DNA of 36,764 bases from IMG/VR virus record IMGVR_UViG_3300045988_146803; one strand, written 5' to 3'. The number at the start of each line of letters is the position of its first letter. Within the stretch, counting starts at the first letter, position 1. The position numbers and the translations under genes were made by a program. Shown here in pieces: positions 1 to 36,764 of the stretch. The notes beneath the pieces are model-generated. The model did not search any database and had not been told where the DNA came from. It saw only the letters and a program-made list of their open reading frames with translations. The DNA comes from a virus.

Positions 1-55
1 CCATAGTATACAGGAATGGCTGGCAAAAGTCAAAGAAACTACCGATAAAATCGGG
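1..55. repeat. Terminal direct repeat, left copy (identical to 36710-36764)
   Basis: CCATAGTATACAGGAATGGCTGGCAAAAGTCAAAGAAACTACCGATAAAATCGGG is present at both ends. A 55-nt length fits a k-mer assembly overlap of a circular or terminally redundant molecule. Confidence 0.97.
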
Positions 56-3000
56 GGAAACGGAGAAGTCCTAGCGAGCGTCGTAAACGATTTCGAAGAG
101 AGCAGCACCTATCACCAAATGGCTGGAGAATATGCCCATAACGTTCTATCGGGAAAGTCGACAAAGAAGGGCATGGCCGAGCAGCAGCTGGACGCAGATG
201 AGAAATCCTTCGCGGACAGCGTAGATCGTTTCATGGCAGGAAAGATTTCCACAGATACTATCCAAGTCATGAGGACTCCGCTTGTGATGAGGCTTGTAGG
301 AGCTGAAGTTCTGCCGGTTGAAATTTCTGTATCCGACTTGAAAAAAGTTTTAGTAGACAAGCATACGGATATCACTCCGGACATCATGAAACAAATTCCA
401 CGTGCACTTACGGATCCGATGATGATCTTTTCCACATACAGTGGGAAAAACGGAGAAGTGCGCAAGGTGATCGTGCTTGAGCTCAAAGATAAGAACGGGG
501 CTACCATCGTGATACCTATGGAATTGGAACGCAAGAAAGGCAACTATGAAGTAAATCAGATTACAAGTGCGTATGGGAAAACGGATAAGAAAACAAGGAG
601 AACGTCTTTTGTATGGTTCCAAAAACAATTACAGGAAGGGAAATTAGAATATGCCAATAGAAAAAAGGCTACCGACTGGATTTCTTCAGAGCAGCCCCAT
701 TGGCTCATTCCCGAAGAAAAAGTCGATAACCTTTTATCTGCTCCTAATGTAGCAAATGAGGAAGACCTTGTCAAGCTGAAAAGCGAAAATCCCACCTACT
801 ACCAGACGGTGGCAGACAAAAATCTCGTTGCCATGCATAACATAGATTTGGGAAATCTGGCAGCCGCTATCAAGTTAGGAGGGCTCCCAGTACCTTCTAT
901 TGCTGTCACTAAAAAGCAGACGTCATATACCGGATTTGGGGACGCTACCTTGATTATGAAAAAGGATACGGTAGACCCATCAAAAACCCCAGTTTTTTCC
1001 AGAGATGCATGGACAGGCGTGTTCCCTAAAGTTATTAGATTGGCCAACATGAAGAGACTGACGTCTTTTGTAGAAAAAGCCATAGAGCCGTTGCAAAAGG
1101 AGCTTCCAAGAGAAGCTGCTGATTACGGGGATATATACAATAGCTATATCTTACGCAACGCCAATAATAAGAATGGTGACGTGCAAAAGATGTTAGAGGA
1201 TTCACTGAACTCCGCAGGGTACAAATATTACTTTCTGAAAACAATAAACAAGGAGCCAAAACTAAAATGGAGAAAGAAGGGGTTAAGCAAAGAACTGATA
1301 GACCATCCCGAGATATTGCAGGCATGTCAGGGGCTTGAAAAGAAGTACGGGGAGCAGGGGCTAAAAGAGCTGTTGTACGAAGGCCCTTTTGCTATGCTGG
1401 AAGAAAGCACGGACCTCAAGAAAGCCAATGATCTGATAGTCAATGAATTATCAAAGAAGCCGGAAGGAAACGAATCACCATTCCTCAAAAGGGTACACGA
1501 ACGTCAGCAGGCCAGACTGGTAAATGGAGAAACGCTTCATTCATTGCTTTCAGACTACTTGGAAAGAGACAAGAAGGTTTTTGAAGGGGAAAGTTTTGAA
1601 CAGCAGTTAGACAAGCGAATAAAGGCCAATCAAAATACATTCAATGCCTGGAAAGAATCTTTTCGAGATGAAATGTTAGGCGAGTCTGTCATTCGGGATA
1701 GTGGCAAACCTGCAGACTTGGAGAACATAGTTGATGCCATGTTGGGAAACCTAAAAAATGCTCAAAAAGGTTTTGCCGGATTCGGCATAGGAAATATCAT
1801 AGCCAGCAGCGCCAAAAAGATAGAATCATTCGGAGAAATGCACCGGGAAGCAGATAGGAAAATGGATGAATCTACCAACATCGAGACAAGCTTGGATAAA
1901 TCGGAACAGTACACGAAGGTAAAAAACGAAATTATGGATTTCACGGACCGAATGGCTGAAGCCTACAAGTGGGAAGACCACTGGGAATCCTGTTCTGATG
2001 CATCGCAAGTTCTGATGTCCATGATGTCAGGGAAAACGTTCAAAGCATCTGCGAGAAAGTTTGGCTTCACATATTCCGCAGCGTTAGAGAAACAGGCCAA
2101 AGAAATTATAAAGGAAGTAAAGGATCTTCCCGCTAAGTATTTCGAGGCAAAGCCACAGCGCGCGGTTCGTTTCAGTGAAGTGGCTGCTGCTGTCATGCCA
2201 AAAAATGCGTCAAAAGAGATCAAAGATTATCTGAGGGCGCAAGGCGTAACCATCCGTTTATATGATCCCAGAATAGAAGGCGACCGCGAGCGAGTCACAA
2301 ATAGCGCACAAGACAGAGTAAAGCAATATTTTCAGGAAGGCAGCAATTACCAAGGTTCCTACGACAGAAACGCCAACGTCATTGAGCTTTTCGACGGTGC
2401 GAATGAATCTACAGTGATTCACGAAGGCGCTCATATGTTCCTTTCTATGCTTGAGAACATGAGTCAGATGAGCGAAGAGAATGTCGCCACCTACTTCAAC
2501 GGGGATACGGCGAAAGCACGCGCTGCATTGAAGAGCATGCGGGGCGATCTCTCTGCCATTCGTTCATGGGCCGCCTTTTCCGAAGATCACCTCTCTGAGT
2601 ACAAGGGGACTATTTTAGAGAAGGAATTCACCAAGTATGCCGAAGACATCAGAGCAGGGAAGGCCGGTGCCATGGAACGCTGGATGCAGGAACGCTTTGC
2701 CAGGGGCTTCGAAAAATACCTCATGGACGGTAGCGCACCCACCAAAGAAATGCAGGGGGTCTTCCGACGGTTCAAGAAATGGCTGACCGACATCTACAAG
2801 ACAGCAAAGAACCTAGGAAACGTAGAACTCACACCCGAGATCAAAGACATCTTCGATCGTATGATTTCCACAGAAAGCGAGATCAACGCATGGGCCGCGC
2901 AGCGAAAACTGGAAGCGATAGATAAGACCGTCAACGTGAACCAGTCCGAACTGGGTAACCTCAAGGCATGGGCTGAGAGCGTCAAGGACAAAGCTCTGGA

Positions 3001-6000
3001 GAAAGCCATGAGTTACTACCTTCATATGGTGAGAGAAGAAGCCATCGAAAACTTCAAAGCCTCCATTTCTTCTGAAGAAGAGAGAACCAGCTTTATCGAG
3101 TCTCTGGGAGAAGAGAATGAGATCTATCAGATCGAGACCATTTACAACTCCGACACATTCCCTACAAAGAAAGACCGTGACGAATTTCTCCAAATGGCCG
3201 GGTTCACAGAAAAAGATCTGAAAGAGAAGCTGAGAGCTGCTGGCGGCACTACGGAAGAACGGTGGAACAAGCACATCGAAGAGATGGTGCAGCACTATCG
3301 GGAAGAAGCATTAACCCCGGAAGCCATCAGGGGCATGGCCGAAGAAATTCTTCGATCCCCGGAAGGCATGGCCAAGAAGTCTCGCATCGAAGCCATGCTG
3401 CTTGAAAAGAAAGTTTCTGCTTACATCCATCTCGTCAATTCTATGCAGATGGAACTCAAACGGTCCAAAGACAAGAAAAAGACCGCGAGAGAAATTCGCA
3501 AGCGATTGGGACTTGTTTCCGAAAAAGAAACAACAGAGATCGACAAGCAGACAGATGTGATTGCCAAGTCGGAAGATAAGATCGCAAAGCTGGAGAAGCA
3601 GAAGAAGCTGCTAAAAGAGCAGCTTGAAAAAGCGAAAGCAGAAGCTGCAGCAGCCAAGGGCGAGAACAAGTCCAGAAAGGAATCACAGACCATTCTGGAA
3701 GGAAACATGCGAGCCCTTGAGGCCGAGCTTGAGAAGGAACGCGCCCAAAGAGCAAAGGCCGACAGCACCACAAAAGACGCAGAACTCACCGCTGCTGATC
3801 TTGCTGTGCAGCTCCAGACTATGGTAGACGGCCTCAAAGAGTCCAGAGACGCCATGCGCTTCGACATGAGGGAAATCAAAGAGGACGCCAGGAATACATT
3901 AGGCGGCGAGAAACTCTCCCACGCCACCAGCTGGCGATGGTGGGAGAACAAGGCACAGATTGCAGAAGCCCGCGCCATGAAAGCGGCCGCAGGCAATGAC
4001 TGGGAAGGCGCTGCTTATTGGAAACGTGAGCAGGCGCAGTGCCTAACCATGGCCAAGTTCGCCAGGGCAAACGAAGAAGAAATCCGTCGCACCCTTCACG
4101 GAGGCGGCGGGAAAGTCACCACGCCTCTCCTTAACGAAAACGGCATGGAGCGCTACGGCATCTTAGGCATCCTGAACCGCATATCCCGGACGGATAAACC
4201 AGTCATGATGAAGGACGACGCACGCTACTTCGTACAGCACATGGCATACGTCTTAGGGCTCACGAAGAAAGACGGCATCTTGCCTATTGACGAGAGCGGG
4301 CAGGAGAGACCTTTCAACTGGCGCTGGCTTGCTGTAGAGATGAATCCCATGCAGGCCATGGACGATGATCGCTATATGGCCGAGGATATCATTCCAGGAT
4401 GGATGAGAAGCGCCTTCGAAGGCTCTACCTCTTTGAAGCTAAAAGACCTTACCATGGACCAGTTCCGAGAAATGGCAAAAGTCATGAAGGCCGTCTACAA
4501 ATTAGGCAGGAGAGAATACGAGGGCAACACCTTAGGCACCTCTTTCGATAACGCGGCACAAAAGATCCACGATGAGATTTTAGACAACTGGACGCACCGC
4601 GTGGCCACTCCGGGACTCAAGAACCAGACCGCCACTAGCCTGGACAGGCTGGGGACAAAAATCCACAGCCTCATCAAGGACATCACACTTCCCGAGATTC
4701 TGATCGAACGACTGGGAAAGTCTGCTTATGAGTATTTTTATAAACCCATGGATAAAGCAGCTGCCCATTTGCGAGAGCTAAAGAGCGAAGCCCGAGTCAC
4801 CTTCCGGAAGAACTTCGCGATCTACTCCAGGAAAGAATGGACGGTGATCCGAAGCAAGAAGCTCTACACCGTAGGGCTAGACGAGCGCGGTAAACCCGTT
4901 TCCTACACCAAGGAGCAGCTCCTCGCCATGGCCCTGAACTTTGGCACCAAGTCCAACAGGGAACGCCTCATAGAGACCTTGTGGCTGAGCGATACCTTGA
5001 ACACCGACGAGAAAACCATACTGGACATGCTGGATAAGAACCTCACTGACAAGGACTGGGACTTCGTAGAAAGCGTATGGGAGCACCTTAATTCTTACTG
5101 GGGCGAGAGAAACAAAGTCCAGAATGATCTCTACGGCACGCCCCTAGGGAAAGTTCAGGGCGAAGATTTCACGCTGAAGTCGGGACGTGTCATCCATGGC
5201 GCGTACTATAGAATCAAGTACGATCCATTAAGCAGCACGAAGACAAGCAACTTCTCCACAACAGACATCGCCAAGATGGACATGCAGAATATTTCCTCCT
5301 TCTCCTTAGGTATGGGGAGCACCAAGCAGCGTGCAGGAACATCCGGCGGACAGAAGCTCCGCCTCGATCTCGACGTATACGTAGAGGCCGTGAACGAAGC
5401 CATGCAGCACATCGCCATGCGAGAAGCTACTGTAGACGTCTACAAGCTCCTCAACCGAAAAGAAGTCGTGGCAGCCATCGAAAACACCGCAGGTCCGGAA
5501 ACTCTTTCTCTGCTGCAGGGATGGGCCAAAGACTGCTGGCACTCCTCGATCAAGGATATGAGCGAATGGGACTCTACCCTAGGCAGAGCCCGGCGGCGCT
5601 TCAACTTCACGACGATGGGGTTCCGATTCTCCACAGCTTTACTGAATATCGGGAACATCACCGGCATGATGGAACGGATGGGAGCAGCCAATGCCCTAAA
5701 GGCCGTCGGAGATTTCTATTTTCATGGGATCATCGTAGAGCAGCGGCGATTTATTCAAACCAAGTCCACTATGATGAGAGACCGAGGGGCCACAATCGAT
5801 CGGGATATGTACATGCAGGACAGATTGCCGGTAGGGAAGAACGAGTCCGAGTTCCGCTCCAAGATCGAGCACGGCAAGTATGGCGTCGATACCTTAAACT
5901 CCAAGGCCTACTGGCTGATCCAGGCGACAGATGAAATGTTTTCCATGCCTGAATGGTTATTTACTTACAAGAGAGCCATGGCCGCTATGGAAATCGAAGG

Positions 6001-6688
6001 CAAGCTCAATAGAGACGAGATGGACGCAGAAGCCGTGAGACTGGCAGATAAAGCCGTGAGAGAGACTTTCGGATCCAATGAGACCAAAGACCAGACCAGC
6101 TTTATCAGGAAGAACGGAATTCTTGCACAGATGACCACCTTCTATAGCTACACCAGCCTTGTCACAAACCAGTTTATCCGCGCAGGGTATATCTTATACG
6201 ACAAGGGAGATGTGAAGCCGCTCCTCGCAGCCACGTGGTATTGGTGGATCCTAGGCGCTTTAGTCGAAACAGCCTTACGAGAAATCGGGGACGACTCTGA
6301 TGATGAAGATAAATGGAAGAAGAAATTCCTCCATGTTGCTGCTTCCGGCGGCCCCATTGGCGGTGTCCCTCTTGTAAGAGAAGCAGTCCCGTGGACAGTA
6401 GATTTCTTTACCGGGAAATCCTTCGGATCCGCAGCCCCAGACGCTCCATTCTTCGATACCCTAAAGCACATGGAAAAATTCCTCAAAGCCACCAAGAAAG
6501 GTGATCTCATAGAGATGGGGCGAGGAGCCACCAAAGCCATCACAAGGACATCCATACCCGTCCCGGATACCATCACAGACGCCTTCTGGAACTTCATGCG
6601 GCTTACTTGCACTGACACGGAATTCACCATGTGGGATTGGTTCAGAAAGTCACTTTGGGATAAGACGCTAAAGGAGAAGAAAAAATGA
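2..6688 (+). CDS. Giant virion/ejection 'polyvalent' protein, continuation (bases 2-55 duplicate 36711-36764); T7 gp16-position protein
   Basis: Codons from base 2 (HSIQEWLAKVKETTDKIGGNGEVLASVVNDFEESSTYHQ) are stop-free into M119 of the listed ORF and share the frame of 33186. Visible modules: a MuF_C-like module (MRTPLVMRLVGAEVLPVEISVSDLKKVLVDKHTDITPDIMKQIPRALTDPMMIF...YEVNQITSAYGK); an HExxH motif (VIHEGAHMF, nt 2420-2434) followed by ERFARGFEKYLMDG...FRRFKKWLTDIY; a long coiled coil (~3420-3900); and C-terminal hydrophobic segments (~6130-6290). Confidence 0.85.
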   Translation, partial: HSIQEWLAKVKETTDKIGGNGEVLASVVNDFEESSTYHQMAGEYAHNVLSGKSTKKGMAEQQLDADEKSFADSVDRFMAGKISTDTIQVMRTPLVMRLVGAEVLPVEISVSDLKKVLVDKHTDITPDIMKQIPRALTDPMMIFSTYSGKNGEVRKVIVLELKDKNGATIVIPMELERKKGNYEVNQITSAYGKTDKKTRRTSFVWFQKQLQEGKLEYANRKKATDWISSEQPHWLIPEEKVDNLLSAPNVANEEDLVKLKSENPTYYQTVADKNLVAMHNIDLGNLAAAIKLGGLPVPSIAVTKKQTSYTGFGDATLIMKKDTVDPSKTPVFSRDAWTGVFPKVIRLANMKRLTSFVEKAIEPLQKELPREAADYGDIYNSYILRNANNKNGDVQKMLEDSLNSAGYKYYFLKTINKEPKLKWRKKGLSKELIDHPEILQACQGLEKKYGEQGLKELLYEGPFAMLEESTDLKKANDLIVNELSKKPEGNESPFLKRVHERQQARLVNGETLHSLLSDYLERDKKVFEGESFEQQLDKRIKANQNTFNAWKESFRDEMLGESVIRDSGKPADLENIVDAMLGNLKNAQKGFAGFGIGNIIASSAKKIESFGEMHREADRKMDESTNIETSLDKSEQYTKVKNEIMDFTDRMAEAYKWEDHWESCSDASQVLMSMMSGKTFKASARKFGFTYSAALEKQAKEIIKEVKDLPAKYFEAKPQRAVRFSEVAAAVMPKNASKEIKDYLRAQGVTIRLYDPRIEGDRERVTNSAQDRVKQYFQEGSNYQGSYDRNANVIELFDGANESTVIHEGAHMFLSMLENMSQMSEENVATYFNGDTAKARAALKSMRGDLSAIRSWAAFSEDHLSEYKGTILEKEFTKYAEDIRAGKAGAMERWMQERFARGFEKYLMDGSAPTKEMQGVFRRFKKWLTDIYKTAKNLGNVELTPEIKDIFDRMISTESEINAWAAQRKLEAIDKTVNVNQSELGNLKAWAESVKDKALEKAMSYYLHMVREEAIENFKASISSEEERTSFIESLGEENEIYQIETIYNSDTFPTKKDRDEFLQMAGFTEKDLKEKLRAAGGTTEERWNKHIEEMVQHYREEALTPEAIRGMAEEILRSPEGMAKKSRIEAMLLEKKVSAYIHLVNSMQMELKRSKDKKKTAREIRKRLGLVSEKETTEIDKQTDVIAKSEDKIAKLEKQKKLLKEQLEKAKAEAAAAKGENKSRKESQTILEGNMRALEAELEKERAQRAKADSTTKDAELTAADLAVQLQTMVDGLKESRDAMRFDMREIKEDARNTLGGEKLSHATSWRWWENKAQIAEARAMKAAAGNDWEGAAYWKREQAQCLTMAKFARANEEEIRRTLHGGGGKVTTPLLNENGMERYGILGILNRISRTDKPVMMKDDARYFVQHMAYVLGLTKKDGILPIDESGQERPFNWRWLAVEMNPMQAMDDDRYMAEDIIPGWMRSAFEGSTSLKLKDLTMDQFREMAKVMKAVYKLGRREYEGNTLGTSFDNAAQKIHDEILDNWTHRVATPGLKNQTATSLDRLGTKIHSLIKDITLPEILIERLGKSAYEYFYKPMDKAAAHLRELKSEARVTFRKNFAIYSRKEWTVIRSKKLYTVGLDERGKPVSYTKEQLLAMALNFGTKSNRERLIETLWLSDTLNTDEKTILDMLDKNLTDKDWDFVESVWEHLNSYWGERNKVQNDLYGTPLGKVQGEDFTLKSGRVIHGAYYRIKYDPLSSTKTSNFSTTDIAKMDMQNISSFSLGMGSTKQRAGTSGGQKLRLDLDVYVEAVNEAMQHIAMREATVDVYKLLNRKEVVAAIENTAGPETLSLLQGWAKDCWHSSIKDMSEWDSTLGRARRRFNFTTMGFRFSTALLNIGNITGMMERMGAANALKAVGDFYFHGIIVEQRRFIQTKSTMMRDRGATIDRDMYMQDRLPVGKNESEFRSKIEHGKYGVDTLNSKAYWLIQATDEMFSMPEWLFTYKRAMAAMEIEGKLNRDEMDAEAVRLADKAVRETFGSNETKDQTSFIRKNGILAQMTTFYSYTSLVTNQFIRAGYILYDKGDVKPLLAATWYWWILGALVETALREIGDDSDDEDKWKKKFLHVAASGGPIGGVPLVREAVPWTVDFFTGKSFGSAAPDAPFFDTLKHMEKFLKATKKGDLIEMGRGATKAITRTSIPVPDTITDAFWNFMRLTCTDTEFTMWDWFRKSLWDKTLKEKKK

Positions 6689-6836: not shown

Positions 6837-7484
6837 ATGATAGGTGTCGAAGCGAATCGAATCGTCTATAGGGGTGATGGAATTACAACAAGTTTTCCGT
6901 ATACCTTTACGGTCCTTGAGAAAGCGGATATTGTCGTGACGCTTGTAGACAAGGAACGTAAGAAAAAGACTCTCACGGGCAATTACTTCATTGATATGGA
7001 CAAAAAAGAAATTATCTACCCGGGGTATGCGCCCGGAGAAGAACCTGCAGAGGCCGAACGGCCGCCCGTGCTTCCGGAGGGATGGTATCTTGTTATCCAA
7101 AGAAAAACGAAAATAGACCAGCAGACAAGCCTCGGGGACAAATGGCCATTCGATGTGACGGAAGATGCACTGGATAAAATCACCAGAATTTTGCAGGATT
7201 TAGATACAGACTCTAAGCGGCATTTAGAAGTTTCTGTAGAGGCTAGCGGCATAGATCCCATGCTTCCGTCGCCTAAAGCCAACATGGGATTTTACTGGGA
7301 CGAGACCGGGACAAAGCTTGTAAAGGGCCTAAACCCGAATGCCGCCAGCGAAAGTGCAGCCGCCTCCGCCAGTGCAGCGGCCACCAGCGAGACAAATGCA
7401 GCCGCGAGCGCCAATACAGCCAAGGCGCAGGTCGAAGCTGCACAAAGTAAAGCCGAAATCGACACTATTTCTATAAGCGCATAG
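6837..7484 (+). CDS. Short tail fibre-like protein (T7 gp17-type N-terminal adaptor motif, no obvious receptor-binding domain)
   Basis: RBS AAGGAGGG precedes the start. The N-terminus VYRGDGITTSFPYTFTVLEKADIVVTLVD is the pattern typical of podovirus fibre N-termini. The C-terminus is Ala/Ser-rich (ASESAAASASAAATSETNAAASANTAKAQVEAAQSKAE), as in fibre shafts. The position matches T7 gp17. Confidence 0.65.
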   Translation: MIGVEANRIVYRGDGITTSFPYTFTVLEKADIVVTLVDKERKKKTLTGNYFIDMDKKEIIYPGYAPGEEPAEAERPPVLPEGWYLVIQRKTKIDQQTSLGDKWPFDVTEDALDKITRILQDLDTDSKRHLEVSVEASGIDPMLPSPKANMGFYWDETGTKLVKGLNPNAASESAAASASAAATSETNAAASANTAKAQVEAAQSKAEIDTISISA

Positions 7485-8295: not shown

Positions 8296-8304
8296 GAGGG
8301 AAAT

Positions 8305-27066: not shown

Positions 27067-29769
27067 ATGAAAGAAACCATCTATCTCATGCAGTCATCCT
27101 TTGCGACCGGCGAAGTTTCCCCGGAAGTCGCCAGCCGCATAGACATGGAGAAATACCAGGCCGCTTTACTGCAGGCCGAGAACTGCTATATCAGGCCTTA
27201 TGGCGCTGTATACAAAAGACCCGGATCGATCTATTGCGGCATGGCCAAGAAGAATAAAGTTCGTCTGATTGAATTCAAGTCTACTGTGAACCATGCCTTT
27301 CTCCTTGAAGTAGGAGAAGGGTATATCCGCATCTGGAAGGACGGAAAATTTACCAATCAGGAAATCGTGACCCCTTACAAGGAATCCGAACTTCCCAAGC
27401 TCCGCACCTGCCAGAGCGCCGACATCATGTACATCGCCTCCGGCGCCCATCCCGTCATGCAGCTCAAACACTATTCTGACACCGACTGGCGCTTCGAAGA
27501 AATGGTGATGAATAGTCAGTACTTCGATGAGTTCTTAACAGTTAGTAACAACGTGGTAGACGAGATATGGAATAAAGCCGGAACATACGCATGGGAATGC
27601 CACAAGGCAGGGAACTATGCCGTGACCGTAGCGGGCGGCGGTGGCGGCGGAGCCGATACCGTGAGCCACTACAGAGACAGCAGATACAAAGAGGACGGAA
27701 GTACGGTAGAAGCTGCCGGTGGTATCGGCGGGAATGGTGCTGCTGTATCACAATCTGTCTACTGCAAAGAAAATACCACTTACACCATCACCGTAGGGGA
27801 CGGGGGAGAAAAAGGATCACCGGGAAATTCCGGAGGAAATTCCACCGCCTTCGGACTCACCGCGCAGGGGGGCGGCGGGGGACAACTGGGTACATTCACC
27901 GGTACAAGAAGGCCACACAAACCCTACACCGTATATACGGGGCATGCGGGTGAAGCAGGCGTCTCCTACGGTAATGGCGGACAGGGAAGTCATAACAAAG
28001 GGAATCCAGGATGGGTGGCCGTCAAATCCATGGATGAGCCTACCCTGACTATCTCCGGCACCGCAGGTGAAGTCACGCTCTCCTCGGATAAACCCTTCTT
28101 CTCTGCGGACATGAAAGGCATGTGGATGAAGATTTCTCAGGACATCGCCTCCAAGTCCGTCACCGCCAGCGGGGCCATGACCACAGATCCCATACCCGTA
28201 GGAAACGGATGGAAGATCATCACCCATGGCACATGGACGGGGCAGGTGGTCATCCAGAAATCCACGAATGGCGGCGAATGGAAAGACTTCAGGACCTACA
28301 AATCGAATGACGACAACAACGTCAGCGAATCCGGCACCGTCGATGAAGCAGACAATGTCAAAATGAGACTTGTCACCACTGCAGGTAAAGCCGACCTCAC
28401 ATCGACCGCCTACACCAAGTCCGGCATCATTCAGATCGAAACCGTGAATTCAGCAACCAGCGCCACCTGCCTTGTGAAAAAAGTCATTGGTCAGGCGGGG
28501 AAAGTCGACAGCTACTCCTTCGGCGCATGGAACGAAAAATACGGCTATCCAAGGACCGTGGGATTCTTCCAAGACAGATTGATATTTGCCGGGACGAAGA
28601 CGCAGCCATACGTCCTATGGATGAGCAAGACCGGAGACTACAACAATTTCTCCGTCGAAAAAGCCTCCGGCACCGTGACAGACGACAGCGCCATCTGCCT
28701 TTCCTTTATTTCCCGTCAGCAGGCGGAGATCAAGCACATCTGCCCGGCAAGCGACCTCTTCGTCTTGACCGACTCCAATGAATGGATCGTTTCCGGCGGC
28801 AGCACCGTTACACCGTCCAAATGCACCAACAAGGCGCAGACCTTCCGCGGATGCACGGAAGTCGAACCTATCTCCATCGGCAGCCGTCTGATCTACGTGC
28901 AGAAACGGTCCCAGACCGTGCGAGACATGGCCTATTCTTTTGAGACCGATTCCTACGACGGCATGGACCTTACCCTTTTGGCCAAGCACCTTTTGAGAGG
29001 AAAGACCATCGTAGACGCTGCCTACATGCAGGATCCCGACTCCAGACTGTATTTCGTCCGTTCCGACGGGGAAATCATCTGCCTCGCCTACATCAATGAC
29101 CAGAAAGTCTATGCATGGTCCCATATCATCACAAAAGGGAAGTATCTTTCCGTCTGCACCGTGACAGCTGAAGAGACCGACGAAGTCTACACCGCCGTCG
29201 AAAGAAACGGTAAAACCTATATCGAGAAGATGGGAACAGACAAAGACTCCCAAGATCCGAAAGACTACATCATGACCGACTGCTCCAAAGTTCTCACCTT
29301 TGATGAGCCTGACGATGCAGCGTCAGTCGACTGGATCACTGGGACAGTTTCCGTATTGGCAGACGGGAAATTCTTCGAAAACGTAGAAATCAAAGAGGGG
29401 ACAGTGACACTTCCCACCAAAGTATCCTACATGATCATCGGCTATCCCTACCGGATGACCATCGAACTGCCTAACGTAGAAATTCAGGCACAGAACGGCA
29501 CCATGCAGGGGAGATATAAAAACGTCCGCACCGTTTCCCTAAGACTGCTGCACACCTTAGGAGGCAGTATCGGAAACGGCGTAGGAAGAAATGACACCAT
29601 CAAGTACGAGGAGCTCTCCAACCAGAAGATCTTCCTCTACACAGGAGATAAAGAAATCACCATACCCAACCAGGGCGTAGAGAAGAACGGGCGAGTCATC
29701 ATCACCTCTTCCGATCCCTACCCCTTCTATCTGGCAGCATTGATCAGAGGAGTGATCGTCAGTGAATAA
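27067..29769 (+). CDS. Nozzle / tail tubular protein B-like protein with inserted glycine-rich domain
   Basis: 900 aa in the T7 gp12 position. N-terminus SSFATGEVSPEVASRIDMEKYQAALLQAENCYIRPYGAVYKRPGS. Glycine-rich insert at aa ~168-321 (nt ~27568-28030). Confidence 0.65.
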   Translation: MKETIYLMQSSFATGEVSPEVASRIDMEKYQAALLQAENCYIRPYGAVYKRPGSIYCGMAKKNKVRLIEFKSTVNHAFLLEVGEGYIRIWKDGKFTNQEIVTPYKESELPKLRTCQSADIMYIASGAHPVMQLKHYSDTDWRFEEMVMNSQYFDEFLTVSNNVVDEIWNKAGTYAWECHKAGNYAVTVAGGGGGGADTVSHYRDSRYKEDGSTVEAAGGIGGNGAAVSQSVYCKENTTYTITVGDGGEKGSPGNSGGNSTAFGLTAQGGGGGQLGTFTGTRRPHKPYTVYTGHAGEAGVSYGNGGQGSHNKGNPGWVAVKSMDEPTLTISGTAGEVTLSSDKPFFSADMKGMWMKISQDIASKSVTASGAMTTDPIPVGNGWKIITHGTWTGQVVIQKSTNGGEWKDFRTYKSNDDNNVSESGTVDEADNVKMRLVTTAGKADLTSTAYTKSGIIQIETVNSATSATCLVKKVIGQAGKVDSYSFGAWNEKYGYPRTVGFFQDRLIFAGTKTQPYVLWMSKTGDYNNFSVEKASGTVTDDSAICLSFISRQQAEIKHICPASDLFVLTDSNEWIVSGGSTVTPSKCTNKAQTFRGCTEVEPISIGSRLIYVQKRSQTVRDMAYSFETDSYDGMDLTLLAKHLLRGKTIVDAAYMQDPDSRLYFVRSDGEIICLAYINDQKVYAWSHIITKGKYLSVCTVTAEETDEVYTAVERNGKTYIEKMGTDKDSQDPKDYIMTDCSKVLTFDEPDDAASVDWITGTVSVLADGKFFENVEIKEGTVTLPTKVSYMIIGYPYRMTIELPNVEIQAQNGTMQGRYKNVRTVSLRLLHTLGGSIGNGVGRNDTIKYEELSNQKIFLYTGDKEITIPNQGVEKNGRVIITSSDPYPFYLAALIRGVIVSE

Positions 29770-30232
29770 CAGCTACTACGGCGTGGACATTCGCACCATC
29801 GACAGCCTTGCCATGGCCGACCTTTTATCCCAGATCCTCGCGGGAAACATGCGAAAAGAAGACAGAGAAGAATTAGAAGCCCAGGGGCGCATGCCTTATG
29901 GCGGCCTCTATGAAAGCATGACAACTTCCATAGAAGCCTACTATGCCATTCATGAGAACATGCCGCTCGCTGCCTTCGGAATCGGCCTATGCCCGGAGGG
30001 ATGCTCCATCTGGATGCTCGGAACTACTATGTGCGAGCGCCACAAGAAAGCCCTGGTCGCTTGCATGCAAGACTACATCAAGGACAGCTTGAAGAAATAC
30101 AAAGCCCTTACCAATTACATTTCCAAAGACAACACCAAAGCCCTCCGCGTCATTAAAAAGATGGGAGCCGCCTTTGGGGAAGAAGTAGAAACGGGCGGGA
30201 AAACCTTCGTCCGCTTCACATTAAAGGAGTAA
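29762..30232 (+). CDS. Virion-associated protein (T7 gp13 position)
   Basis: GTG start overlaps the nozzle stop. 156 aa (T7 gp13 is 138 aa, from memory). No motif firmly recognised. Confidence 0.5.
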   Translation: MNNSYYGVDIRTIDSLAMADLLSQILAGNMRKEDREELEAQGRMPYGGLYESMTTSIEAYYAIHENMPLAAFGIGLCPEGCSIWMLGTTMCERHKKALVACMQDYIKDSLKKYKALTNYISKDNTKALRVIKKMGAAFGEEVETGGKTFVRFTLKE

Positions 30233-30234
30233 CT

Positions 30235-30915
30235 ATGTGCAGCGTATCCGCCGCCCTGATCGGCTTAACCGCCGCGCAGGGCATCACATCTATGGCCTCT
30301 GCTCATCAGCAGGCCAAAGCACAGTCTGCTTATTACAATTCTCAGGCAGAAGCCGCAGAGCAGAACGCGAGAATCGCAGACAAACAGAGAGAGCAGATTT
30401 CTGACCAGTACCTGCAGAAACAGCAGCAGCTTGACGCCAGAAGACGATTAGTCATTGGCCAGCATGCGGCAGAAGCAGGAGCAAGCGGCTTCACAAGCTC
30501 CGGATCCATGCAGGACATGGACGCTGCCACGATTGACGAATGGAGAAATTCCTCCATGAATCTTTTAGGCAATCAGAGAAATGACACCAAGAGCGCCTAC
30601 ATCAACCAGGTGAATTACATCAATCAGGCAAACAGCGCAAGAGCTGCTGCCTACAACGCCAGACAGCAGGGGAAGCAGGCCATGTTTGGCACCCTCCTTT
30701 CCACGGCTGCTTCCATCTACGGCGTAGCCAAGACCTACGGGAATGCAGCTAAACAGCCAGCCTCCGGCGGACTTCACCACCAGGCGGCTATGAGCGGAAT
30801 GCCGGAGACCATGACAGACCAGGTATATGCCATGAATCAGTACAAGCCGCAGAAACTTTCCTTGACCAAGAGTCCCTACTCGTGGCTAGGTGGTGGCTTC
30901 AAGATCGGGAGGTAA
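30235..30915 (+). CDS. Internal virion protein (T7 gp14 position)
   Basis: 226 aa, Ala/Gln-rich helical (QAKAQSAYYNSQAEAAEQNARIADKQREQISDQYLQKQQQLDARRR...). It has the composition and position typical of ejection/core proteins. Confidence 0.6.
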   Translation: MCSVSAALIGLTAAQGITSMASAHQQAKAQSAYYNSQAEAAEQNARIADKQREQISDQYLQKQQQLDARRRLVIGQHAAEAGASGFTSSGSMQDMDAATIDEWRNSSMNLLGNQRNDTKSAYINQVNYINQANSARAAAYNARQQGKQAMFGTLLSTAASIYGVAKTYGNAAKQPASGGLHHQAAMSGMPETMTDQVYAMNQYKPQKLSLTKSPYSWLGGGFKIGR

Positions 30916-30918
30916 AGC

Positions 30919-33174
30919 ATGAAACTCTCTCAATTTTCAGGGGATATCAATAAGAACATCATGAAAGGAAAGATCATCCCGACTACGACACTAGAAAGCG
31001 CAGGAGGGAATACCGCAGGACTTACCACCTTAGGGAAGGCTGCAGGTGCCGTATCGGACATGCTGGGGAAGGTATGGCTGAAAGACCAGAACGATAAAAT
31101 CTTCGACGCAAAAAACGATTACGAGCAGCGCATCAATACCCTCATGGACGATGAGAACACCGGCCTTTTCAATACCCATCAGGGCAAGGCTGCCGAGAAC
31201 CTGCAGAAAGACTACACCGACCAGGAACAGAAGATTTATCAGCAGGTCCTGCAGGATCATGGGATCTCTTCTGATTACGCCGTCCGAGCTTTCGGGGAAC
31301 AGAGAGCACAGTCACAGACATCGAACTTTCGTATGATCGACAAGTACCAGCGAAAGCAGATGGAAGACTACGCAGGAAATCAGATTTCCTTGATGACCAG
31401 CAACATGGTGAACCAGTCCGTCAAAGACCCCGACTCCCTCATCACGAACTTCGGAAGCTGGGAGAAGAATACCACTGCCATTCTGGCAGGCCTCAGCATG
31501 GATAGCGCAGCTATTGACGTCAAAATGAAAGCACTGAAGAACGATAAAGCCAAAGAGATCATGCAGTCCTATCTCACCACTGGCGATTACAGCGCGGGCC
31601 TCAATGCCATCGCCTACATGAAATCACAGGGGATAGACGAACCGACACTCAAGGCTTACAAAGACCAGTTCCTTCAGAAGAAAATGACGCGGGAAATTAA
31701 AAGCAGCGCCGAAGACTATGTCAAAGGAAACGGACTGAACCTCACTACCATGACATGGGAACAGTTCCGGGATGCATGGAGGAAAGACCACCCGACGCCG
31801 GTCCCTCAAGGGAAAGGCAGCGTCACGGGAAATCAGATCGCGGAATTTGCCAGAAACAACTACACCGAGGGGGATCAGTGGATGGGAAGCGTCACCAAAG
31901 ATCCCACGATCCAGTGCGATTCATGGACCGCTGACGTCTACGCCAAGACCGGCCTTTTCCCGGACGGGACAATCACGCACGGTTCCGACTTCGGGGACGC
32001 CTACCACGAAGCGGGCGACGGCTATGAACCACAGCCCGGAGACTTCATTGATGGGGAAAAGCACGTCGGCATTTATTTAGGGAACGGCCAGTACATGGCC
32101 AGAAACTCCTCCGGCGGCATCCACATTGGCAGCATGGACGAGTGGAATGAATGGTTCGGGAAACCCATTGGCTATGGATCCGTGGCAGAGGCCAAAGGCG
32201 AAGCGGCGGACGACATGTCAGACGAAGAACGAGCCGAGCTGCAGGACAAGAGCGACGCTGCCCTAAAGCAGCAGTACGCCGAGATCCGCTCAAGCCAAGT
32301 AACCTACATCCAGAGCCAGGTGCGGAACATCACCAAAGGAATCCTCGAAATGGAGCAGAACGGTTCCACGCCCGGCCAGGCGTATGAGTACGCCGCGGAT
32401 ATTGTGGACAACGATCCCTTGCTGAAAGACTCTTCGGCGGGCGTCACGCTCTTAGGCCGTCTGATGAATCAGAAGAGAACCTACGAAAATTCACAGAACA
32501 GAGCTGCCAATGTAGGGAGAGGACTTGATACCAGCGGCTGCCTCAAAGAGAAAGGGTTCAACGCCTTAGAAGGATTTATCGGGACGAAAATCAATTCCAT
32601 CGAAGACCTCGACAACATCATCAAAGACCTGCAGGAAGAAGGCGTCTACCTCACTGCAGAGCAGGATGCCAAGATTCGGAAAGATGTCATCGACTGCGGA
32701 AACGGCGTGGGAACCTTTGCCGTCAAGATCCCGGACGATGACGCTGCCATTGCGGCCATGTGCTACACCAATACCTCCGCCGTCACCTCGACAGCGAAAA
32801 TGCTCATTAAGAGAGAAATCATGGATTTCAAAAACGAGCAGGGGAGAGATCCCGACAACGACGAACTCCGCACCATCTACTACGATGTGATCGGGAAAGA
32901 GAGCCTCGACAGCACCGGCAAAACGAAAATCGGCGGGATTAACATCTTCGGTGTAAACCTTTTCGGGGACGACTACGAAGCTCCAACCATGAGCGAAGCG
33001 CAGGCCTACGACGATCACATCAGGGAAACGTCGCAGGCCGTAGACGAAGATGGAAATCCGAATGGTTTCTACATTGACGTGGACTACGGGAACGGAAAGA
33101 CTGAGACCAAGTGGGTGTCTGATGAACAGATGAGACAGATTTCCAATGGAGAATTAAGCGTATTCGATATTTGA
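30919..33174 (+). CDS. Internal virion protein with NlpC/P60-type peptidoglycan peptidase domain (T7 gp15 position)
   Basis: 751 aa (T7 gp15 is 747 aa, from memory). Catalytic-looking Cys in TIQCDSWTADVY (codon 31915-31917) and His in GEKHVGIYLGNGQYM (codon 32062-32064). Confidence 0.7.
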   Translation: MKLSQFSGDINKNIMKGKIIPTTTLESAGGNTAGLTTLGKAAGAVSDMLGKVWLKDQNDKIFDAKNDYEQRINTLMDDENTGLFNTHQGKAAENLQKDYTDQEQKIYQQVLQDHGISSDYAVRAFGEQRAQSQTSNFRMIDKYQRKQMEDYAGNQISLMTSNMVNQSVKDPDSLITNFGSWEKNTTAILAGLSMDSAAIDVKMKALKNDKAKEIMQSYLTTGDYSAGLNAIAYMKSQGIDEPTLKAYKDQFLQKKMTREIKSSAEDYVKGNGLNLTTMTWEQFRDAWRKDHPTPVPQGKGSVTGNQIAEFARNNYTEGDQWMGSVTKDPTIQCDSWTADVYAKTGLFPDGTITHGSDFGDAYHEAGDGYEPQPGDFIDGEKHVGIYLGNGQYMARNSSGGIHIGSMDEWNEWFGKPIGYGSVAEAKGEAADDMSDEERAELQDKSDAALKQQYAEIRSSQVTYIQSQVRNITKGILEMEQNGSTPGQAYEYAADIVDNDPLLKDSSAGVTLLGRLMNQKRTYENSQNRAANVGRGLDTSGCLKEKGFNALEGFIGTKINSIEDLDNIIKDLQEEGVYLTAEQDAKIRKDVIDCGNGVGTFAVKIPDDDAAIAAMCYTNTSAVTSTAKMLIKREIMDFKNEQGRDPDNDELRTIYYDVIGKESLDSTGKTKIGGINIFGVNLFGDDYEAPTMSEAQAYDDHIRETSQAVDEDGNPNGFYIDVDYGNGKTETKWVSDEQMRQISNGELSVFDI

Positions 33175-33185
33175 GAGGAATCACA

Positions 33186-36100
33186 ATGGACGAAGAAATT
33201 TTAGGAAGCGTGCTGCATGGGATTAAGCCAAAGGACTACACACCTATCCAGGTGAGACCGACACCGGAATTTGGCGGAATTCAGCTCACCGAAGAACAGC
33301 AGGCCAAGAAGGACAATACGGAATCCGTCAAGGATGGAGAGATCCTGCCCTTAAACGGTTTTGCCGACACCGTAGAAGCCCAGTGGGAATCCGCCAAAGA
33401 CCTTGTGAAATCCACCGACGTATACAAGAACCTTTTCGGAAACAGCGCACCGGATGATAACCGCCTCGAACAGTCTGAGAAATTAGGAAGTGCGCTAGGC
33501 ATTGCCCCTCAGCTGATTGCCTCCGATCCGGATATGTACAAGGCAGCCGTCACCACCTATGAGAGACAGAGGAATGCAGCCGCACTGAACAACCAGCCAT
33601 TTTCTGCCAAGACTTTGAATGAACTCTACCCGGAACTCGACACGGAAGACCCCGTGGCCACCACCATCGCTTTGAAGGACTATACCAACATCCTGAAAAA
33701 CCGAGAAGCAGCAGCGCAGGGCGCGGCGGTTTATACCATGCCGGAAAGCAAGCTCACCGATCTTTCTAATGTCATCGGCTATCTCTACGACACCGGCACC
33801 CATTTTGCGGGCACCGCCTACGATGCCGGGCAGGCACTCGACGCACAGAGCGAGCTCATGTACAAAGCTTCCATCGGGGAAATCTCCGATGAAGAAGTAG
33901 AGAAAGCCATTCCAGGACTGATGAATGTCCAGAAATCATACAACGCAGAAATCGGGGACTCCTACGTGGCCAAGATTGTAGGGGAAACCATCTCCCAGCT
34001 TTCCATGCAGAAGAATATGATCATGCGCGGCGCAGCAGAAATCCTCGCTCCGATCGCTCCATTGGCGCAGCCTATCTTAGCGGCCACCAAAACAAACTTG
34101 CCGCAGATCGCTACCTTAGGCGCTGCATCCGCAGCGGGCGCCGTAGGAGCCACAGGCGCCGTGTCAGGAGCAGCCGTCACAGGAGCGGCCGCACTGACAG
34201 GGCTCATCGCCTTAGGCACTGCTTCCGTCTTCACAGGAACCTATAGAGCAGAAGCTGGACAGGCGTATTGGGATTGGCGCACCAAAAAGGATAAAAACGG
34301 GAAATCTGTTTATACCCGAGAGCAGGCCATTGGCCATGCCAAGAGAGTCGGAAGAATCAATGCAGCCATTGAAACCGGTGCATGGGAGCTCGCACTCAAG
34401 GGCATCACCAAAGTATGGGGGAGCGACGCAGCCAAAGCTGTCATCAAGAACGAAGCTGCCATGAAGAAACTGATCGGCGCAGGGAGAGCAGCCGTAGGAG
34501 CTAAAGCCATTGGATACGGTGCGAAACAGTTCGCCAAAGTGGCGGCGCCTGAGATCGCAGAAGAAGGTCTGCAGTCTCTTTCTGCAGATATCGATACAAA
34601 CCTCTTTGGGAAAGAAAATGTTCCCGTAAGAGAGATGATGGGGAATGCCTTGGACGCCATGATCGAAGCTGTTCCTTCCGTTGTTGGTATGTCGATCGGC
34701 GGTGCTTCTTTAGCAGGCGCAGGGGCACATAGAGCCATGAAGAGAATCACTGGCCTCTCCGAAATGAAAGACGCCGTTATCGAATTCAAACGTGAGAACG
34801 AAAGATCCATGCTGCAGAAACTCATGGATCTCCGCTCCGAATCGTCCCTTTACAAAAAAGCACCGGAAACCTACCGGAAGACGCTGCAGAACCAGCTCGA
34901 TCATACCGGTTCCGGCACGCTTTACATCGACGCTTCCGCAGCGGCCGAAAACGAAAAGACACACGATGCCTTAAACAAGCTCGTAGAAGATGGCACGATC
35001 ACCGCTAAAGAATTGGATGACGCCATCAAGACCGGCAAGCCCTTAGAGGTAGAGGCAGGGAAATACATGCAGACCGCCACCCCTGAAACCCATGAAGCCC
35101 TTTCCGACTACACCACCATGGACAAAGGAGAAAAAACGATCCATGCCATCCGAGAAGAGCGGCAGCGCATGAAAGACATGATCGACATTGTCACCATGAC
35201 ACGCGAAAAAAGAGAAGCGGTCGCTGCAGAAAAAATCTTGAACGACCACTTCTCCGATGATACCGATATCGGAAGAGAAGATAGGGACACCGCAAGAGAA
35301 ATTCTTTCCGGCGGTTTAGATCATATCGAAGACACATGCAAGACCATCCTTCAGGAAGCCAAAGACGCATGGGGAAAGCTGACCGGCGTCAAAGAACTCC
35401 AGGACTACATGGAACGGAGAAAGACACAGGACGCCAACACATCCAATGAAAAAGGCGTCGATATGTTCGACGTCGGGGAAGGGAAAGATCGGGTACATCT
35501 CAGAGTTTCCAAGAACCCAGATTGGTATCAGGATTTTTATGGTACATACGGAAGAGCACCAAACCAGCGTGAACTCTACGATATCGCCCAAGAGAAAATC
35601 ATTGCCGAGAATGATAAAGGCGATGAAGAATCCAAAGTGGCCATCGCCGAGATCGAAGAAGCCAAGAAGAGAGTCGAGTCCATCGAGAGAGTGAGTGAGA
35701 CGCTGAAATCCTTAAACAAAGAAGATCTCATCGCCCAGACTCTCTTAGATCCAGAGACCTACGAAGAAGCCTACAAGCCTCTCCTCGCGCAGATTCAGGC
35801 CGCAGGGAACGGGGCTGTCACCAAAGCCGCGAGAGACTCCGCTTTAATCCTGGCAAAGCTCGCAGAGAATTTCCATAGGAACTACGGCGTGCCATTGAAA
35901 TTGGCCATGATTGCCGCTGGTGAAGTCAGTCCGGAGACCGCGCATCAGCTGAACCAGTCCGCCATCGAGAACGAACTGCAGCTTGTGAAAGAGAAATACT
36001 GGAATACTGAGGAATGGATGAAAGCCCCGGACGGTACACTGACAAAGCTGACCGAGCGCCAGTGGCTGATTACCCATAGCGAAACTTTCAGGGAATGGTT

Positions 36101-36764
36101 TGGAGATTGGGAAACCGTCGAAAAGGTCACAAAGCTATACTATGGAAATCCAATCGTTATGACAGAAGGAGGATTTAAAGAAAAATTAGAGAAGGCAGCA
36201 CGAGATAACGGAATAAATATAGCCGCAGATGCCGATTCCATACGAAAAGAGATTAAGACCATTTTCAAAAGTCTGTACCCAGGTAAAGAATTATCAAAGG
36301 GGTACAGAGAACCGGGACGGGTAAAAAATCTTGACGGTGAGTTAATCAGTATCACTGTTTCATCGGCTAAGGAATTAAGGCATCACTCCACAAATCCGAG
36401 GACATTATTTTTGGCGGTTAACCTCGATTCTGTTATTGAAAACGCAACATTCCTTTACGAAGAAGTTAAAGATGAATCCAGAGTCAAAAAGTCAAATCAA
36501 ACAACATTGGCTTATAGGTATTATGCGACACGCGTTGTGGTTAATGGGGAAGAATGTATAGCCAGAATTATTGTAAGAAAAGATAAAAACGGCAATTTAT
36601 ACTTTTATGATGGTGACATTACAAGTAATGAACAAATAAAAAAAGACCTACCTAAATACCTGTATCCGGATACCAAAACCGGGCAGAATTTAGGTAAGTC
36701 TCTCTTTACCCATAGTATACAGGAATGGCTGGCAAAAGTCAAAGAAACTACCGATAAAATCGGG
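33186..36764 (+). CDS. Giant virion/ejection 'polyvalent' protein, N-terminal 1,193 codons (no stop in window; continues across the junction to stop at 6688; 3,403 aa in total)
   Basis: ATG 33186 lies 6 nt after GAGAGGA. Read by eye, the frame is stop-free to base 36764. It is absent from the ORF track only because it never terminates in the window. Minus-strand ORFs here look like shadow ORFs. It has a Gly/Ala-rich hydrophobic stretch (IATLGAASAAGAVGATGAVSGAAVTGAAALTGLIALGTASVF, ~34040-34240). A FREWFGDWE linker (~36080-36115) precedes a beta-rich module (YYATRVVVNGEECIARIIVRKDKNGNLYFYDGDIT). Confidence 0.85.
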   Translation, partial: MDEEILGSVLHGIKPKDYTPIQVRPTPEFGGIQLTEEQQAKKDNTESVKDGEILPLNGFADTVEAQWESAKDLVKSTDVYKNLFGNSAPDDNRLEQSEKLGSALGIAPQLIASDPDMYKAAVTTYERQRNAAALNNQPFSAKTLNELYPELDTEDPVATTIALKDYTNILKNREAAAQGAAVYTMPESKLTDLSNVIGYLYDTGTHFAGTAYDAGQALDAQSELMYKASIGEISDEEVEKAIPGLMNVQKSYNAEIGDSYVAKIVGETISQLSMQKNMIMRGAAEILAPIAPLAQPILAATKTNLPQIATLGAASAAGAVGATGAVSGAAVTGAAALTGLIALGTASVFTGTYRAEAGQAYWDWRTKKDKNGKSVYTREQAIGHAKRVGRINAAIETGAWELALKGITKVWGSDAAKAVIKNEAAMKKLIGAGRAAVGAKAIGYGAKQFAKVAAPEIAEEGLQSLSADIDTNLFGKENVPVREMMGNALDAMIEAVPSVVGMSIGGASLAGAGAHRAMKRITGLSEMKDAVIEFKRENERSMLQKLMDLRSESSLYKKAPETYRKTLQNQLDHTGSGTLYIDASAAAENEKTHDALNKLVEDGTITAKELDDAIKTGKPLEVEAGKYMQTATPETHEALSDYTTMDKGEKTIHAIREERQRMKDMIDIVTMTREKREAVAAEKILNDHFSDDTDIGREDRDTAREILSGGLDHIEDTCKTILQEAKDAWGKLTGVKELQDYMERRKTQDANTSNEKGVDMFDVGEGKDRVHLRVSKNPDWYQDFYGTYGRAPNQRELYDIAQEKIIAENDKGDEESKVAIAEIEEAKKRVESIERVSETLKSLNKEDLIAQTLLDPETYEEAYKPLLAQIQAAGNGAVTKAARDSALILAKLAENFHRNYGVPLKLAMIAAGEVSPETAHQLNQSAIENELQLVKEKYWNTEEWMKAPDGTLTKLTERQWLITHSETFREWFGDWETVEKVTKLYYGNPIVMTEGGFKEKLEKAARDNGINIAADADSIRKEIKTIFKSLYPGKELSKGYREPGRVKNLDGELISITVSSAKELRHHSTNPRTLFLAVNLDSVIENATFLYEEVKDESRVKKSNQTTLAYRYYATRVVVNGEECIARIIVRKDKNGNLYFYDGDITSNEQIKKDLPKYLYPDTKTGQNLGKSLFTHSIQEWLAKVKETTDKIG
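36710..36764. repeat. Terminal direct repeat, right copy (identical to 1-55)
   Basis: Exact 55/55 match to the window start. Confidence 0.97.

Follow-up and report, generated by a model that had tools for sequence, protein, structure and literature searches.

We consider the 36,764-nucleotide stretch of viral DNA held as IMG/VR virus record IMGVR_UViG_3300045988_146803 (this whole stretch, at its full length, is called the window), and a giant gene among its virion genes that runs across the point where the two ends of the window meet. This DNA is a complete genome that closes as a circle; it belongs to a temperate podovirus of the BPP-1/epsilon15 type, from the gut bacterium Dialister (Veillonellaceae) and not of the Autographiviridae type. 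Its virion module follows the order large terminase, portal, scaffold/protease, major capsid, tubular tail A, tubular tail B, gp13-like protein, gp14-like protein, a 751-aa protein, the giant and a fibre adaptor. Bases 1-55 are exactly those at 36710-36764, and this 55-mer is the longest terminal repeat; trimming one copy leaves a unique circle of 36,709 bp. A k-mer overlap at both ends is usual for a circular assembly path. The 55-mer is such an overlap, chance being excluded; it means that the assembly path closes and does not indicate the physical ends of the virion DNA.

The open reading frame (ORF) of the giant gene can be followed on the plus strand through this junction. The stop of the preceding gene, TGAGAGGAATCACA and a Shine-Dalgarno-like motif, GAGAGGA, lie ahead of its ATG at 33186. 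The 5' part (33186..36764, 3,579 bases, codons 1-1193) holds zero stops in its 1,193 codons, up to the last base of the window. Past the junction, with one copy of the 55-mer removed, the frame resumes at base 2 (codon 1176, HSIQEWLAKVKETTDKIGG...), passes the ATG at 119 (codon 1215) and reaches its stop at 6686-6688, which makes the 3' part 1..6688, with bases 1-55 repeating 36710-36764. The result is a single gene of 10,212 nt and 3,403 aa that takes up 27.8% of the circle. Only 119..6688 (2,189 aa) had been listed, because the ORF lister drops ORFs that run off an end; this listed ORF starts at the internal Met1215 and is the C-terminal 64% of the giant. The preliminary description of this DNA had proposed the terminal repeat and the circle length, the start with its ribosome-binding site and stop-free run, the continuation into the listed ORF as one gene of about 28% of the genome, the listed ORF as no more than the C-terminal two thirds, and a length about 2.6 times that of T7 gp16 (1,318 aa). 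These claims stand on recomputation, the ratio being 2.58 with the gp16 length checked. Genes that run across the arbitrary break of a circular contig are missed or cut short by gene callers, which here hid 28% of the genome; trimming the k-mer overlap and rotating the sequence ahead of annotation avoids this.

Does the frame hold where the contig is not broken? The relatives that can answer are those whose contigs carry the point of the window's junction internally, and because these unbroken contigs keep one ORF there, the continuity of the gene is independent of this assembly. Among the IMG/VR contigs there are 19 relatives; 16 of them are complete, each with a single unbroken ORF of 3,077-3,470 aa that begins, as the giant does, with MDEEILGSVL. 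The giant is aligned over aa 1-3403 as a single tblastn segment in one frame in L003, L005, L006 (aa 1-3395), L008, L009 and L011, while in L010 and L012-L020 both conserved arms of the protein lie in one frame by tblastn. When aa 950-1650 are used as the query, many proteins span aa 1175-1193 in one alignment, for example P0001 at 85% identity (aa 661-1592) and P0047 (aa 628-1317). A scan of one genome per species finds prophages in Dialister and Veillonellaceae genomes. The prophage L029 of the isolate Dialister sp. i34-0019-2H8 follows window 30896-36124, 2-828 and 2344-6730 collinearly, in that order, and keeps a single frame of 3,392 codons; in more distant Dialister prophages (32-64% identity), among them the one of the Marseille-QA0723 chromosome, the frame is likewise single and 2,701-3,589 codons long. 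Two of the prophages with an unbroken giant ORF (L029 and L037) come from isolate genomes. In total there are about 30 relatives, and besides L001 and L002, to which we return below, about 25 are in frame. In some distant relatives (L023, L024) the slot of the giant is divided into two or three genes.

We turn to the identity of the protein. Over its conserved C-terminal 1,450 aa it is a homologue of Bbp10 of Bordetella phage BPP-1, in two collinear BLASTP blocks: giant aa 1947-2136 with Bbp10 762-926 (E 2e-25), and giant aa 2642-3285 with Bbp10 1310-1942 (E 9e-37; E 5e-68 with the profile A1). The second block falls in a mostly alpha-helical C-terminal module (aa 2603-3403, window 4283..6685, plus strand), for which we also have a match to phrog_9880 (E 1e-111) and an AlphaFold2 (AF2) model, and the tblastn matches of the C-terminal 800 aa are to large proteins of cultured temperate podoviruses, Bbp10 among them. 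Upstream of this module is a Lys/Glu-rich predicted coiled coil (aa ~2330-2480, window 3464..3916, plus strand), proposed from its composition, with weak Pfam matches of coiled-coil type only. Bbp10 is listed in Table 2 of Hardies et al. (2016, PMC4819975) as the homologue of IVP-D (the internal virion protein termed D, T7 gp16) in the epsilon15/BPP-1 subgroup, and the same paper describes IVP-Ds as hosts of domains destined for the cytoplasm. Bbp10 is an accepted member of the IVP-D family, and the giant has significant sequence homology to it.

The position of the gene agrees with this assignment. The giant comes after the IVP-B and IVP-C genes and before the fibre, and the order in BPP-1 is identical. 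The neighbours, all on the plus strand, are a gp13-like internal virion/assembly protein of 156 aa (29762..30232; phrog_308; BLASTP to T7 gp13 E 9e-8; PF11090 on the L002 orthologue), a gp14-like internal virion protein (IVP-B) of 226 aa (30235..30915; phrog_418; PF24072 T7_gp14 on orthologues), and the 751-aa protein in the gp15 (IVP-C) slot, which has an NlpC/P60 peptidoglycan peptidase domain (30919..33174; PF00877 E 2.7e-5). Tubular tail B matches Bbp13 (E 3e-45), and similarity to T7 in the flanking genes is weak (gp13 E 9e-8, gp12 E 7e-6, gp17 N-terminus E 0.002). The secondary structure that AF2 predicts for the C-terminal module and the HExxH region is almost entirely helix, which fits a large alpha-helical IVP-D. 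Synteny and transitive homology together support the giant as a predicted IVP-D, equivalent to T7 gp16. The slot proposed earlier for the gene, after gp13/14/15-like genes and before the fibre, is thereby borne out by gene order and by Bbp10; of the T7-style framing, the slot and the operon stand, while the phage as a whole is not T7-like, being a temperate BPP-1-like podovirus with an integrase and with no RNA polymerase (RNAP) or DNA polymerase genes. The earlier remark that the giant has no RNAP-like motif also holds, since Pfam scans of the whole protein and of its pieces show no RNAP family.

What does the rest of the 3,403 aa contain? The N-terminal conserved arm (aa 1-950, window 33186..36035, plus strand) shares about 95% DNA identity with every close relative, is conserved in distant members as well, and gives no Pfam match. 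It includes the giant's only strongly hydrophobic segment, a Gly/Ala-rich stretch with a glycine zipper of GxxxG type (aa 308-352, window 34107..34241, plus strand), seen in the hydropathy and also as a pattern in the family consensus, which we infer to be a candidate membrane-insertion element. The centre of the protein has three Pfam domains, all above the curated cut-offs and all on the plus strand: LPD3 (aa 1019-1139, 36240..36602; PF18798, E 1.9e-11), inside a cassette A that covers aa ~950-1174; MuF_C (aa 1294-1399, 356..673; PF18819, E 3.4e-21), a predicted RNase of PBECR type, in cassette B; and PBECR5 (aa 1446-1614, 812..1318; PF18814, E 1.7e-36), a predicted barnase/EndoU/colicin-like RNase, at the start of cassette C. 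The rest of cassette C (aa ~1615-1960, 1319..2356, plus strand) is 30-59% identical in DNA to every fetched relative and is matched by phrog_22978 at aa 1746-1946. Piecewise Pfam scans of the giant at E <= 5 add no further domains, and a sequence search of the PDB with the whole giant returns noise only.

These families were defined on the "polyvalent proteins" described by Iyer et al. (2017, PMC5512222), where MuF-C is classed as a PBECR (barnase/EndoU/colicin-like RNase) domain and where the polyvalent proteins are predicted to be packaged and injected with the DNA. The giant has the marks of that class: LPD3, MuF_C and PBECR5, domains of unrelated types, lie in one ORF, and the ORF is placed with the late virion-structural genes, between those for internal virion proteins and the tail fibre. 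The domain matches indicate that the extra length of the giant is made up of the N-terminal arm and these exchangeable polyvalent cassettes, with an HExxH domain also present.

That the cassettes are exchangeable can be seen from the sliding DNA identity of the giant gene against 13 relatives. Two conserved arms, aa 1-950 and aa 1960-3403, remain at about 95% in all 13, and the central cassettes between them (aa ~950-1960) re-assort independently. Cassette A is about 100% identical to that of L003, L005, L006 and L011 and 40-60% to that of L001, L008 and L009; in L010-L020 it is swapped for other modules (one containing HExxH in L013) or deleted (L015, L016). Cassette B follows another grouping, 99-100% identical to L008, L010, L013, L014 and L015 and about 60% to the others. 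The short linkers between the cassettes stay at 91-97% identity, and the first of them, linker 1 (aa ~1175-1250, window 1..226, plus strand), is ~92-97% identical even where both flanking cassettes differ. On this pattern linker 1 appears to be the recombination joint between cassettes A and B.

The conserved C-arm opens with the HExxH domain (aa 1947-2136, window 2315..2884, plus strand), whose motif is HEGAH at aa 1982-1986 (bases 2420-2434), with the QERFARGFEKYL block downstream. Among 21 aligned sequences reaching down to about 25% identity, H43, E44 and H47 of the motif (domain numbering) are conserved in at least 90%, and E133 and E140 in all. For the region AF2 gives a model (pLDDT 79, core pLDDT >90) whose elements run in the order N-helix, beta-hairpin, HExxH helix, helical insert and Glu helix, which fits the minimal description of a zincin. 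A zincin-like metallopeptidase with an HExxH helix and a downstream Glu helix is a frequent hub domain of polyvalent proteins (PMC5512222). We describe the domain as a predicted zincin-like metallopeptidase, an assignment that stays at the level of the motif because no Pfam peptidase family and no PDB structure matched it. The BFVD search returns only uncharacterised giant phage proteins that have a Bbp10-derived "crystallin" label or LPD labels; one of those labelled "crystallin", from a gut virome, is 86% identical in the HExxH region. A second HExxH (IIIHELQH) is found in the giant of L013, in the cassette at aa 967-1314 that replaces LPD3, with a weak match to eCIS_core (E 9e-5) and a marginal one to PhageMetallopep (E 0.024), and the giants of some relatives may thus have two metallopeptidase-like domains.

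Combining this information, we propose, with a probability of about 0.78, that the temperate BPP-1/epsilon15-type Dialister podovirus of the window has one 3,403-aa IVP-D gene, cut by linearisation, with an N-terminal arm, a centre of swappable cargo and a C-arm of HExxH domain, coiled coil and IVP-D core, and that its product is a packaged and ejected carrier of the cargo. Judging from the families involved, the following mechanism can be suggested. The giant would be packed into the capsid core along with the gp14-like and the 751-aa muralytic proteins. At infection it would be ejected ahead of the DNA and, with the gp14-like and the NlpC/P60 proteins, would build a trans-envelope conduit across the diderm envelope of Dialister. 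The ejection would thereby bring the central cargo into the cytoplasm, where the predicted RNases could target host RNAs or defence RNAs at the very start of infection. It is more speculative that the cargo may be set free by the HExxH domain cutting the polyprotein, and that the glycine zipper may insert into a membrane. Packaging and delivery are suggested by analogy with phi24B gp47 and N4 gp50, both compared with the giant below. The locus would then be a clean case, with many members, of an ejection protein serving also to deliver swappable anti-host enzymes, in the phages of a common human gut bacterium, and, with about 30 relatives, two of them in isolate genomes, the predicted injection and processing of polyvalent proteins become testable in a cultivable host.

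Several observations weigh against this proposal. There is no significant direct similarity between the giant and T7 gp16 (BLASTP E > 0.8; profile A1 against gp16 not significant), and the link between the two is transitive, by way of Bbp10 and published work. For the C-terminal module the AF2 model has low confidence (pLDDT 63) and Foldseek finds no significant match for it in the PDB; because of the low confidence and the missing fold match, a gp16 fold in the module is neither confirmed nor excluded. For the HExxH region, whole and piecewise scans give no Pfam peptidase family, and Foldseek gives no significant match of its model to a PDB zincin or to any other PDB fold, which leaves a zincin fold likewise neither confirmed nor excluded. 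The gene is split in two relatives, called as 1,165 aa + 2,155 aa in L001 and stopped after 1,170 aa in L002. Lastly, the combination of cassettes A and B in the window could be a chimera of strains, since the contig ends at a linker that the strains share.

The presence of the HExxH domain, with its near-invariant motif and invariant downstream Glu, between the cargo and the IVP-D core raises the question of whether the giant acts in one piece. It could be a polyprotein cleaved before or during assembly, like DdrB of phage P1, with only fragments in the virion and a 3,403-aa form that is never functional. Iyer et al. (PMC5512222) discuss both cleavage before packaging (P1 DdrB) and packaging in an unprocessed form (N4 virion RNAP), and on the other side N4 gp50 and phi24B gp47 are reported as large virion proteins. 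We regard a polyprotein of this kind as unlikely.

The next concern is whether the particular set of cassettes in the window belongs to one strain. Three upstream cassette variants converge at the boundary between ...CTTTAC and CCATAGTATACAGG on a near-identical linker, and the contig's first base is exactly there; the terminal 55-mer (36710..36764) begins a few bases inside linker 1. The assembler broke the circle at linker 1 because the graph branches where co-occurring strains differ, and a shared stretch of about 200 nt is not resolvable by a graph of k=55. As cassettes A and B are matched at about 100% by different subsets of relatives, the ORF could be real and its cassette combination still a chimera of two co-occurring strains joined at the shared linker. 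Against this, natural relatives re-assort their cassettes just as freely, which makes the combination biologically as plausible as any other. We judge a chimera decidedly unlikely, and it would leave the gene itself in place: every cassette variant is in frame, and the giant ORF survives any combination.

The mosaicism also invites a bolder reading, which we hold to be doubtful, that the centre of the giant is a dedicated system for swapping effectors, with the linkers (aa ~1175-1250 and ~1425) as joints and with exchange both among co-infecting phages and with chromosomal orphan copies at a locus between leuS and trmK. These orphans are stand-alone LPD3-MuF_C-PBECR5 genes of 540-552 aa, together with fragments, in bacterial chromosomes (L025 8001-9623; L026 and L027 6100-9659), at a fixed locus between leuS and trmK-NIF3-rpsB-tsf. 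In L026 and L027 they are tandem diverged copies, and in L025 the orphan gene is at the edge of an unrelated prophage. That prophage was considered as a form of the window's phage and rejected, its lysis module being only 73% identical. The orphan copies have 97% DNA identity to window 108-828 (linker 1, cassette B and linker 2), against about 60-75% in the flanks and no more than about 60-77% outside that stretch as a whole; possibly they are orphan cassettes, or remnants of prophages, with a share in the same exchange. If the bolder reading were true, the chromosomal orphan cassettes would be a reservoir like the orphan toxin modules of contact-dependent inhibition (CDI) and Rhs systems.

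It can also be asked whether the cargo does anything. The giant might be a purely architectural protein of the capsid core or the conduit, with inactive relics in the LPD3, MuF_C and PBECR5 regions; these families are known as predicted activities only, and the frame stays open in L015 and L016, which lack cassette A and so show it to be dispensable. Against this, polar and charged residues in each domain are conserved in at least 95% of homologues (e.g., H1296, K1337 and N1360 in MuF_C, H1454 in PBECR5). The cassettes moreover remain open and are exchanged rather than decaying, and the distant members carry other cargo of conflict type (ART-PolyVal), which fits selection on effector function. 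A merely structural role for the centre is, in our estimate, quite improbable.

Finally, the splits in L001 and L002 have to be explained. Both breaks (L001 13440-13480, L002 10868-10872) are near aa 1170, no more than about 50 nt upstream of the junction point. In L002, GAATTTTAGG stands in place of the GAATTTAGG of the window and five other contigs, a run of four T instead of three; the corresponding TTT of the window is at 36689..36691 (plus strand) in cassette A, where the window and five relatives are in frame and the TTTT of L002 breaks it. In L001, CCAAAACGGGG stands in place of the CCAAAAACGGGG of L029 (an isolate genome) and L009, with four A instead of five. Beyond each 1-nt shift the other frame still encodes the same conserved peptide, and the splits are probably, on this comparison of sequences, sequencing or assembly errors or sporadic mutations and not the normal state. 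The two indels both cluster at the boundary of cassette A and linker 1, the putative recombination joint. Programmed frameshifting, including the Ty1-like UUU-AGG-UAA context in L002, was considered and rejected: the breaks are homopolymer changes relative to the nearest in-frame relatives, and they go in opposite directions. That the normal state is two genes of ~1,170 and ~2,190 aa, as in L001 and L002, and that the window's in-frame fusion is an assembly or base-calling error near the junction, is very improbable indeed, even though many homologues in other contexts begin near aa 1162-1215, because the two splits are single-base homopolymer differences with the same peptide continued in the shifted frame, about 25 other relatives are in frame, and the indel sites lie within the contig, outside the 55-mer overlap.

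How unusual is a protein of this kind? A profile of the C-terminal module finds 7,269 clusters at E <= 0.001 and 3,795 at E <= 1e-30, counted as representatives at 50% identity. Among the best 148 matches, 124 are at least 2,000 aa long and 51 at least 3,000 aa, up to a maximum of 3,765 aa, and the module is C-terminal in them. Fourteen diverse members of the family, 20-37% identical to the first one in the set, have the N-arm and the HExxH block in common and vary in cargo: LPD23 in 9/14, LPD3 in 8/14, and PBECR5, ART-PolyVal and MuF_C in 4/14 each. The preliminary description had singled out the size of the giant; the factor of 2.6 over gp16 is correct, while the size is not exceptional, as thousands of family members have 2,000-3,765 aa. 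The giant belongs to the large class of giant IVP-D/polyvalent virion proteins described in 2016-2017; it leaves current understanding unchanged, and it was hidden only through the cut point of a circular contig.

The known systems can be ranged around it. Bbp10 (NP_958679, 2,052 aa) is like the giant in its place, with tubular tail B, an IVP-B-like protein and a ~720-750-aa muralytic protein ahead of it and the fibre behind, and in the collinear homology over the HExxH domain and the C-terminal module, both phages being temperate podoviruses. It differs in being 1,350 aa shorter, in having no detected similarity to the N-arm and cassettes, and in its host, Bordetella rather than Dialister. 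The polyvalent proteins (PMC5512222) are, like the giant, very large, combine unrelated domains of the same catalogue with HExxH, are found among virion genes and show highly diversified architectures among orthologues; unlike the others, the giant is anchored in the IVP-D core of an ejection apparatus of T7/BPP-1 type and not in a MuF/portal or N4 RNAP module, and its HExxH domain falls below the Pfam peptidase models. The Stx phage phi24B has gp47, a 2,811-aa LPD-bearing protein that proteomics detected in virions and that is proposed as an ejection protein packaged in the capsid (bioRxiv 10.64898/2026.04.10.717836). The likeness of gp47 to the giant, a giant LPD-bearing protein of a temperate podovirus, is one of description; gp47 has LPD5, LPD1 and LPD38 instead, and no core operon of gp13/14/15 type is reported for phi24B.

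N4 gp50, the virion RNAP, is an IVP-D homologue with embedded cytoplasmic cargo (Hardies 2016, PMC4819975) and carries an HExxH metallopeptidase in its encapsidation region (Iyer 2017, PMC5512222). It is similar to the giant in size (3,500 aa) and is packaged in the virion and injected; it has an RNAP module which the giant lacks, and BLASTP of the giant against gp50 gives nothing at E <= 0.01. Homology to the C-terminal part of gp50 was considered as well, and no direct match to the giant was found. T7 gp16, finally, shares with the giant the operon slot after gp13, gp14 and gp15 and an alpha-helical character, and differs in length as well as in showing no detectable similarity of sequence or fold. 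The giant is also without the lytic transglycosylase domain of gp16, the muralytic domain being instead in the neighbouring 751-aa protein. The hydrolase in this IVP-C slot varies, NlpC/P60 in the window as against an SLT transglycosylase in L023 (2876-5083) and in BPP-1 Bbp11, and these differences are further domain swapping within the ejection operon.

Directly 3' of the giant is the tail-fibre N-terminal adaptor, of 215 aa (6837..7484, plus strand), which matches PHROG tail-fibre families at aa 4-130 and weakly resembles both the T7 gp17 N-terminus and Bbp9. L001 and L028 have fibres of 505-508 aa that begin almost as the adaptor does, with 94-98% identity over its N-terminal 168 aa; fibre length among the relatives varies from 299 to 730 aa. 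The fibre gene of the window is without a receptor-binding part, and the gap up to the holin at 7798 is not filled by any ORF; a truncated fibre, a defective variant or a collapse in the assembly could account for this. Farther along are the holin and a GH25 muramidase (7798-8886, plus strand) and a tyrosine integrase with an Arm DNA-binding domain (9583-10677, minus strand). The phage is classed as temperate because of this integrase, together with the holin and the muramidase, and Dialister is the likely host because related prophages sit in Dialister genomes. A Rep-like protein of 255 aa at 15711-16478 matches a replication-associated family of rolling-circle-type initiators (REP_ORF2/G2P, PF23343, E 3.6e-13), and no RNAP or DNA polymerase genes or large polymerase ORFs are found in the genome. 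A megablast of 16.8 kb gives no match to cultured phages, the similarity to these being at the protein level only. No diversity-generating retroelement is seen in the window. Hallmarks of BPP-1 are found in relatives, namely an Mtd-like domain (mtd_2nd) in the fibre region of L024 (6906-9338) and a Bbp19-family protein in L001 (612-965), and some members of this phage group may have such retroelements.

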